Shown: positions 1 to 479 of the stretch, piece by piece | How positions within the stretch are numbered: position 1 is the first letter of the stretch | Layout: the number at the start of each line of letters is the position of its first letter | Assembly (NCBI RefSeq): GCF_003334785.1 | Contig: NZ_QOWV01000010.1 | Source: Escherichia coli | GTDB taxonomy: Bacteria; Pseudomonadota; Gammaproteobacteria; Enterobacterales; Enterobacteriaceae | Length of the DNA: 64,000 bases | Direction: 5' to 3' (one strand) | Notes under the pieces: generated by a model | What the model was told of the DNA's origin: nothing | Seen by the model: only the letters and a program-made list of their open reading frames with translations | The model's database searches: none | Translations under genes and position numbers: made by a program

Positions 1-52
1 CATCTGTACCGATGCGATTGACGTGATTGGTCCGAACTTTACGGCCCAATAG
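1..52 (+). CDS. ugpQ: glycerophosphodiester phosphodiesterase, 3' end only (5' part outside window)
   Basis: Frame open from the window edge (codons from nt 2) translating [19 protein letters not shown] at 50-52; matches my recollection of the UgpQ C-terminus and the expected neighbour of yhhA; convergent with and overlapping the yhhA stop. Confidence 0.55.
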
Positions 53-479
53 TTTTCAACGGAATGTCAGGCTGCGGCGTGCTGGGCTGATTCAGCATGT
101 CGCCGTTTCTCCTCTCCGGCAGCATATGCTGCTGATTCAACGAACTATCCGGATTACGGTTGCTGTTTAACATCCCGCCGTTGGTGTTGGGCAGCATTTG
201 CTGCCGGGCGGGATTTCGCTCCCCCGGCTGTGACTGCAACACCCGCTGAGAATTATTGTTTATCTGGTTTTCTAAATGCTGCTGTTGCAACTGAGTTTGC
301 GTTTTCAGTTGCTGATTCAGCATCCCTTTTTGCTGGATTTGCTGAGTCTGCATCTGGGTTTGCATCCGCTGCTGGCTGGGTATCTGATACCCCGGCTGGT
401 TAGGGTTGTTCAGAGTATTAATGGGCTGTGCAAAGCCGACAAACGGCAGGAGTGCCGTAAGAATCAGAAGTCGTTTCAT
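39..479 (-). CDS. yhhA: Gln-rich secreted protein of unknown function (146 aa, signal peptide)
   Basis: 146-aa ORF with N-terminal signal peptide [17 protein letters not shown] and Q/N-rich low-complexity body; position next to ggt. Confidence 0.85.

Follow-up and report, generated by a model that had tools for sequence, protein, structure and literature searches.

The window analysed here is a stretch of 64,000 nucleotides (nt) of Escherichia coli DNA (contig NZ_QOWV01000010.1 of NCBI RefSeq assembly GCF_003334785.1), and the gene of interest, yhhA, lies close to its start. The coding sequence occupies positions 39–479 of the minus strand, with an ATG start and 146 codons followed by a stop codon at 39–41; all features of yhhA given below are on this strand and carry window coordinates. 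An earlier reading of this DNA, made from the letters and a list of open reading frames (ORFs) without database searches, had identified the gene as yhhA and described its product as a secreted, prion-like, glutamine/asparagine (Q/N)-rich protein of uncharacterized function. The listed ORF, its 146 aa and the sequence quoted by this sequence-only reading are exact, and the name is correct. The DNA is 100% identical to that of many E. coli chromosomes, K-12 derivatives included, and a match is found in 5425 of 5426 complete E. coli genomes, every time on the chromosome and annotated as ‘yhhA: DUF2756 family protein’. NCBIfam model NF007675 (equivalog; PRK10350) is matched with 265 bits against a cutoff of 136 over residues 1–146, and Pfam model PF10956 (DUF2756) with E = 1.1e-60 over model positions 1–105 of 105. 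The ORF is yhhA, the type member of the DUF2756/NF007675 family, and with full-length matches to both models and the same gene order it shows no difference from that family. As an object it is already known, being an annotated family without an assigned function, and the literature that mentions the gene assigns it no biochemical function, just as had been supposed.

The RefSeq annotation places yhhA between ugpQ and ggt, its neighbours being ugpBAECQ on one side and ggt on the other. The ggt gene is divergent from yhhA and has its ATG at 599, leaving a spacer at 480–598, and ugpQ is convergent, with its stop at 52 and a 3' end that overlaps that of yhhA by 14 nt (39–52). The order of ggt, divergent yhhA and convergent ugpQ recurs in seven other loci, down to homologues of 46–50% identity, and the ggt–yhhA spacer measures 112–123 bp in six of the seven ggt-bearing loci and 191 bp in the seventh. 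The single exception to the gene order is contig L004, in which yhhA stands beside ugpQ and ggt is missing.

That yhhA is a real, translated gene under purifying selection is well supported. A strong Shine–Dalgarno sequence, GGAGG, can be read 7 nt upstream of the ATG (487–491), and GGAGG-type purine blocks stand at the same position upstream of yhhA in five other genera. Mass spectrometry has revealed the protein in Salmonella Infantis (PMC4265081) and in extended-spectrum beta-lactamase (ESBL) E. coli, in which it rises under beta-lactam below the minimum inhibitory concentration (PMC9927464). In a surface extract of Shiga toxin-producing E. coli (STEC), it is within the top 15 proteins by abundance, in the company of periplasmic proteins, among them HdeB, YmgD, ZraP, SodC, PsiF and Ivy (PMC9731836). 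In comparisons with Salmonella, Yokenella, Buttiauxella and two further genomes, synonymous divergence (dS) is saturated and non-synonymous divergence (dN) is 0.10 over residues 18–85 and 0.22–0.40 over the tail that follows. The mass-spectrometric detection, the co-fractionation with periplasmic proteins and the purifying selection all speak against an untranslated frame or a cytoplasmic product, the two outcomes that the sequence-only reading had named as contrary to its claim.

The product begins with what looks like a complete Sec-type signal peptide (residues 1–17; 429–479), in agreement with the clear signal peptide noticed earlier. K2 and R3 are followed by an 11-residue hydrophobic core and then by G-F-A at positions -3 to -1, and cleavage is predicted before Q18, by sequence rule and not by measurement. 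A17, Q18 and P19 are invariant in 37 orthologues; this alignment of 37 sequences, 66–80% identical to the query, is the one used for residue conservation throughout. Having no lipobox Cys, YhhA is not a lipoprotein. These signals, together with the envelope co-fractionation, suggest a soluble protein residing in the periplasm.

The composition of the mature chain (129 aa) is extreme: 22.5% Q, 14.0% N, 10.9% P and 5.4% M, no C, F or W, one Tyr and a grand average of hydropathy (GRAVY) of about -1.4. The richest 80 residues (21–100) contain 36 Q+N. By the same count, the 42 long ORFs of the window reach a maximum of 17 with a median of 11, and the richness has a binomial P = 6e-19 against a background of 8.3% Q+N. 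Methionine, at 5.4%, compares with 2.6% in the long ORFs of the window. Within E. coli, for comparison, the linker of cytoplasmic FtsK reaches 39 Q per 80 residues, and for the secreted amyloids CsgA and CsgB the count is only 17 Q+N. By these counts YhhA is unusual for an exported protein but not unique among the Q-rich sequences of E. coli, and the earlier description of it as Q/N-rich stands, whereas its description as unusual in E. coli is right only in the first of these senses.

The YhhA family is small and limited to Enterobacterales. A word-indexed search yielded 467 proteins, all with PF10956, and an exhaustive HMMER search through 1.84 billion representatives of clusters at 50% identity yielded only 65 family matches. 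Named members come from Escherichia, Salmonella, Enterobacter, Citrobacter, Yokenella, Buttiauxella, Phytobacter and Dryocola, and shorter, more distant relatives of 87–103 aa from Erwinia and Apirhabdus. Across the 37 aligned sequences, 35 columns are invariant and 20 nearly invariant, and conservation, as judged from this alignment, is specific to position and not to composition alone. The homologues of 87–103 aa keep only the signal peptide and a Gln-rich core of the form ...PSQQRxQxxM..QQ.QQ...L.Q...Q...QQ..L..Q.....QR....QPG; the core is therefore taken as the defining unit of the family and the tail as an add-on. A profile search of PDB sequences with the family gave 0 matches and hence no relative of solved structure, and PHROGs gave only a non-significant match (E = 0.049).

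Three parts can be distinguished in the mature protein. Residues 18–33 (381–428) form a Pro/Asn-rich N-terminal segment that is predicted, with modest confidence, to be non-helical; AlphaFold2 assigns it no secondary structure, with a mean predicted local distance difference test score (pLDDT) of about 50–60, and N21, N24, N25, P26 and N27 are invariant. Residues 34–82 (234–380) are the conserved Gln-rich core, for which AlphaFold2, supplied with the 37-sequence alignment, predicts a single long, continuous and polar alpha-helix (pLDDT 70–86), no other secondary structure being predicted after the signal peptide. The predicted helix coincides with residues 35–84, the only proline-free stretch of mature YhhA, which is bounded by prolines at 34 and 85; elsewhere a proline occurs every ≤13 residues. 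The dN of this core is 0.10 against Salmonella, Buttiauxella and Yokenella. Residues 83–146 (42–233) would be a disordered Pro/Asn-rich tail, pLDDT being largely <50 over residues 87–142, and contain four of the five ML[N/P] motifs described below as well as a conserved C-terminal IPLKTIGP. L96, P97, N98, L104, H118, M119, L120, M128 and L129 are invariant in the tail, which in other genera varies in length or is missing.

The sequence-only reading also proposed quasi-repeats, and in this it is only partly borne out. The ‘NQQH / NQPS’ units on which the proposal was founded are ruled out as a true repeat, as the self-similarity of the Q-rich half lies within the range of composition-preserving shuffles (83 of 500 equal the observed score), and a 15-residue periodicity suspected by eye in this half was dropped because it showed no excess over shuffles. 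Tandem Repeats Finder reported no arrays in window 1–600, and the DNA repeats of yhhA are only short, dispersed and of CAG/CTG type. What does recur is a Met-Leu motif. The dipeptide ML occurs five times, a number equalled in 11 of 200,000 shuffles, and all five copies read ML[N/P], which none of 200,000 shuffles equalled: KGMLN (51), QQMLP (93), GGMLN (101), QHMLP (117) and GDMLN (126). The last four copies lie in a gapped duplication of about 24 residues, comprising unit A (residues 92–114; 138–206) and unit B (residues 116–141; 57–134), whose gapped alignment to each other scores 46. The self-similarity of the C-terminal half as a whole is marginal (39 of 500 shuffles equal the score). The duplication is also visible in the DNA, as direct repeats D2 and D7 about 72 nt apart, and the YhhA of Escherichia albertii (P0037, 122 aa) is without exactly residues 93–116, i.e. 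one repeat unit, the deletion junction corresponding to a 6-nt homology, GCAGCA, in the E. coli sequence. The idea of quasi-repeats thus fails for the Q-rich units and survives in another form, as a recurring ML[N/P] motif and a C-terminal duplication.

Regulation of yhhA by RpoS and by stress is well supported by the literature. Genomic SELEX (systematic evolution of ligands by exponential enrichment) placed a site for RpoS holoenzyme in the ggt/yhhA spacer (PMC5493296). The gene is in an RpoS regulon list, where it is induced by a cold shift (PMC4057180), and in O157:H7 it rises along with rpoS as the cells enter stationary phase (PMC2241611). Acid induces it (PMC2270276, PMC7824302), a LolCDE inhibitor raises it 5.6-fold and 9.9-fold (PMC5105897), and it is an up-regulated hub under several stresses, oxidative included (PMC9501238). 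Two blocks of the otherwise variable spacer are the same in all six genera compared. The first, TAAACTTA (507–514, read on the yhhA strand), stands about 27 nt before the yhhA ATG and looks like a -10 element of the sigma-S type. On the strength of this conservation, the RpoS holoenzyme site and the regulon listing, TAAACTTAA (506–514, minus strand) is put forward as the candidate sigma-S-type -10 element of a putative yhhA promoter. The second, TAAGCCTGGT (555–564), stands about 35 nt before the ATG of ggt and resembles no obvious element.

Variation within E. coli was seen at the level of rare alleles. Length variants as a common polymorphism are ruled out, 59 of 59 evenly sampled complete genomes having a yhhA of exactly 441 nt. 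Public protein databases nevertheless contain rare E. coli alleles, at least 30 distinct ones, in which 3–50 codons are deleted or duplicated in frame; these changes cluster in codons 32–119 (122–386), mostly inside the predicted helix, with junction microhomology of 0–9 nt. Several come from long NCBI contigs, which makes assembly errors unlikely. The Q-codon tract may be a hot spot for insertions and deletions, a suggestion drawn from yhhA alone. Another set of variants, of 103 aa (P0096, P0100 and P0108; clusters of 25, 5 and 15 sequences), keeps the signal peptide and the helix and loses the tail, and is reproduced exactly by a recurrent -1 frameshift in a G5 run at 221–225 (C5 on the plus strand; codons 85–87). 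The only sampled complete genome in which the yhhA match covers just 47% of the length (query nt 1–208) is NZ_CP028758.1, of strain A16 from an otter. Finally, P0015 (165 aa, from an ENA metagenome contig) is a mosaic YhhA whose centre is like the ‘SMLKQD...GGNLN’ type of other genera and whose ends are E. coli-like; it may have arisen by recombination or by chimeric assembly.

At the other end of the gene, the overlap between ugpQ and yhhA is 4 nt in Salmonella, Yokenella and locus L009, and there is none in Buttiauxella or locus L002. The ugpQ/yhhA pair appears as an ‘excludon’ in PMC12288877. The sole terminator-like hairpin after ugpQ (13 bp, plus strand, 74–103) falls within yhhA codons, no intrinsic terminator for yhhA was found inside ugpQ, and Rfam had no match across the yhhA/ugpQ/ggt region.

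The explanation that we favour, with moderate confidence, is that YhhA is a Sec-exported, soluble periplasmic stress protein, made up of the helix and the tail, which acts by specific binding and not as an amyloid. A promoter dependent on sigma-S, located in the spacer that yhhA has in common with divergent ggt, would drive the gene. Its product would leave the cytoplasm by the Sec route, enter the periplasm as a soluble chain of about 129 residues, and accumulate in stationary phase and in response to acid, cold and envelope stress. YhhA would then be an abundant, highly hydrophilic stress protein of the envelope, whose helix and ML motifs may make sequence-specific contacts with a putative periplasmic or envelope partner and which may in some way protect or organize the stationary-phase envelope. 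The extreme Q/N content would simply be how a polar helix and a soluble tail are built. Such a protein would keep company with the small periplasmic stress proteins of E. coli that depend on RpoS and with the hydrophilins and similar proteins of the late embryogenesis abundant (LEA) kind, OsmY, YbgS, YahO and YmgD being examples. With these YhhA has in common its regulation, signal peptide, small size, hydrophilicity and abundance in extracts of the stationary-phase envelope, and it appears beside them in the lists of PMC9501238, PMC9731836 and PMC4057180. It has no sequence relationship to any of them, and what makes it hydrophilic is uncharged Gln and Asn instead of charged residues and Gly. 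By the measures used for hydrophilins, its hydrophilicity exceeds 1 (GRAVY about -1.4), and its Gly content of 5.4–5.5% falls just below the customary >6%.

Several points weigh against this explanation, and most of its uncertainty lies in the mode of action, that is, in the specific binding and the protective role. The periplasmic location draws on sequence rules and co-fractionation, and the protective or binding role on regulation, location and conservation. The division into a helix at 34–82 and a floppy tail is itself a prediction of moderate confidence. The hydrophobic positions of the helix are sparse (39, 43, 48, 53/54, 58, 64, 69, 73 and 80) and form no canonical heptad; Fourier analysis of its hydrophobicity gave no clean 3.5-residue coiled-coil signal, with peaks at about 5 and 3.75. 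AlphaFold2 applied to a two-copy helix fusion, a crude test, found no confident packing (pLDDT about 60, predicted template modelling score (pTM) 0.33) and lent no support to a dimeric coiled coil or a hairpin. Moreover, since the rare insertions and deletions fall mostly within the helix, its length may be only loosely constrained.

The label ‘prion-like’ given by the sequence-only reading implies a different protein, one whose mature chain assembles, as a prion or functional amyloid, into beta-rich fibrils within the periplasm or extracellularly. The count of 36 Q+N does exceed the classic threshold of 30 per 80 residues (the Michelitsch–Weissman count), residues 35–84 are a proline-free and nearly charge-free stretch of 50 residues, and Q-rich helical or coiled-coil segments are able to nucleate aggregation. 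That crude count is all of the label that holds, for the 35 invariant columns and the dN of 0.10 reveal conservation by position and not merely by composition, the mature chain has 10.9% Pro with prolines at short intervals everywhere outside the candidate segment, that segment is itself predicted to be helical (pLDDT 70–86), and the supposed units do not rise above shuffles. An excess of Q over N with nearly no aromatics (one Tyr) also disfavours prion nucleation. The yeast prion domains of Sup35, Ure2 and Rnq1 resemble YhhA in having >30 Q+N per 80 residues, low complexity and few charges in the core. YhhA differs from them in being exported, conserved by position, proline-rich outside a core that is predicted to be helical, dominated by Q and not N, and nearly devoid of Tyr and Gly. 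Curli subunits CsgA and CsgB are, like YhhA, small, Sec-exported, stationary-phase (RpoS-dependent) proteins with conserved Gln/Asn, but these real E. coli amyloids are beta-solenoids with only 17 Q+N per 80. A Pfam scan of YhhA found DUF2756 only and no Curlin_rpt (PF07012), BLASTP against CsgA gave E = 44, and the locus, with ugpBAECQ and ggt as neighbours, has no csgEFG-like export genes. The name does not appear in the main text or the accessible supplements of a bacterial prion-domain survey, which is weak evidence. An amyloid is, on balance, very unlikely. Even less probable, to the point of being hardly credible, is the proposal, unverified, that enteropathogenic and enterohaemorrhagic E. 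coli (EPEC/EHEC) inject YhhA as a type III effector whose S/TQ motifs mimic substrates of ATM kinase (bioRxiv 10.1101/364117). S/TQ occurs seven times where 3.4 are expected from composition (P = 0.03), a small excess for a protein with 22% Q, and QS/T is not enriched (P = 0.44). The classical Sec signal, with apparent n, h and c regions and G-F-A|Q, is conserved throughout the family. The gene belongs to the core genome (the 5425 of 5426 genomes include K-12 and B strains) and keeps its chromosomal neighbours in Salmonella, Yokenella, Buttiauxella and Erwinia-like genomes, outside any island. Small abundant periplasmic proteins are, besides, common in culture supernatants.

Two further roles would leave YhhA in the periplasm, and both are improbable, if less so than an amyloid. 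As a methionine buffer, it would be a periplasmic sink for oxidants (hypochlorous acid (HOCl), with repair by MsrPQ) or a disordered protein binding Cu(I) or Ag(I). The raised Met content, the invariance of M43, M53, M119 and M128 (M103 being nearly so), the spacing of M39 and M43 by one helical turn and the induction under several stresses, oxidative included, are consistent with such a buffer. However, HxxM and MxxH motifs are missing from YhhA, MxxxM occurs only once, and the conserved Met is always followed by an equally conserved Leu, which suggests a recognition motif rather than a set of ligands. No metal-resistance or msr genes occur in the neighbourhood, and induction by copper or silver is not reported in the papers on yhhA that were consulted. 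The same contrast separates YhhA from SilE and PcoE, which are also small, periplasmic, largely disordered with helix propensity and endowed with conserved Met: YhhA has neither their HxxM/MxxH motifs nor a metal-resistance operon context, and no homology to them. A role beside GGT, for instance as its modulator, was considered because ggt and yhhA diverge from a common spacer of about 120 bp, and it is about as doubtful as the buffer. GGT is periplasmic, as YhhA would be, the order of ggt, yhhA and ugpQ persists down to homologues of 46–50% identity, and the spacer contains invariant blocks; persistence within a single bacterial order may, however, reflect vertical inheritance and is weak evidence, and contig L004 keeps yhhA next to ugpQ without ggt. 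Nor would the glutamines of YhhA serve as substrate, as GGT needs a free gamma-glutamyl amino acid moiety, which peptide-bound Gln does not offer.

The soluble periplasmic stress protein remains our preferred explanation, and a bolder version of it can be stated, although we consider it a long shot and only slightly less doubtful than the two roles just discussed: that YhhA, by virtue of its Gln-rich helix and five invariant Met-Leu motifs, represents an undescribed kind of uncharged, Q/N-based periplasmic protein, which reversibly self-associates or docks on an envelope partner. If this were true, self-association might produce coiled coils, condensates or gels, or docking might instead serve to protect the stationary-phase envelope, and YhhA would be a Q/N-based counterpart, confined to Enterobacterales, of the charged LEA and hydrophilin proteins.

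The analysis opens no long-standing question and should hold little surprise for the specialist. What it adds are the limits of the predicted helical core, the recurring ML[N/P] motif and the duplication near the C-terminus, a candidate -10 block for sigma-S, and arguments against the prion and effector labels, both of which are weakly founded. As a core gene under purifying selection, with a product that is abundant in one surface extract, yhhA is a fair target among the genes of the ‘y-ome’, and the target is now narrower: a predicted polar helix of about 50 residues as the conserved unit, the ML[N/P] motifs, and regulation of the sigma-S type.

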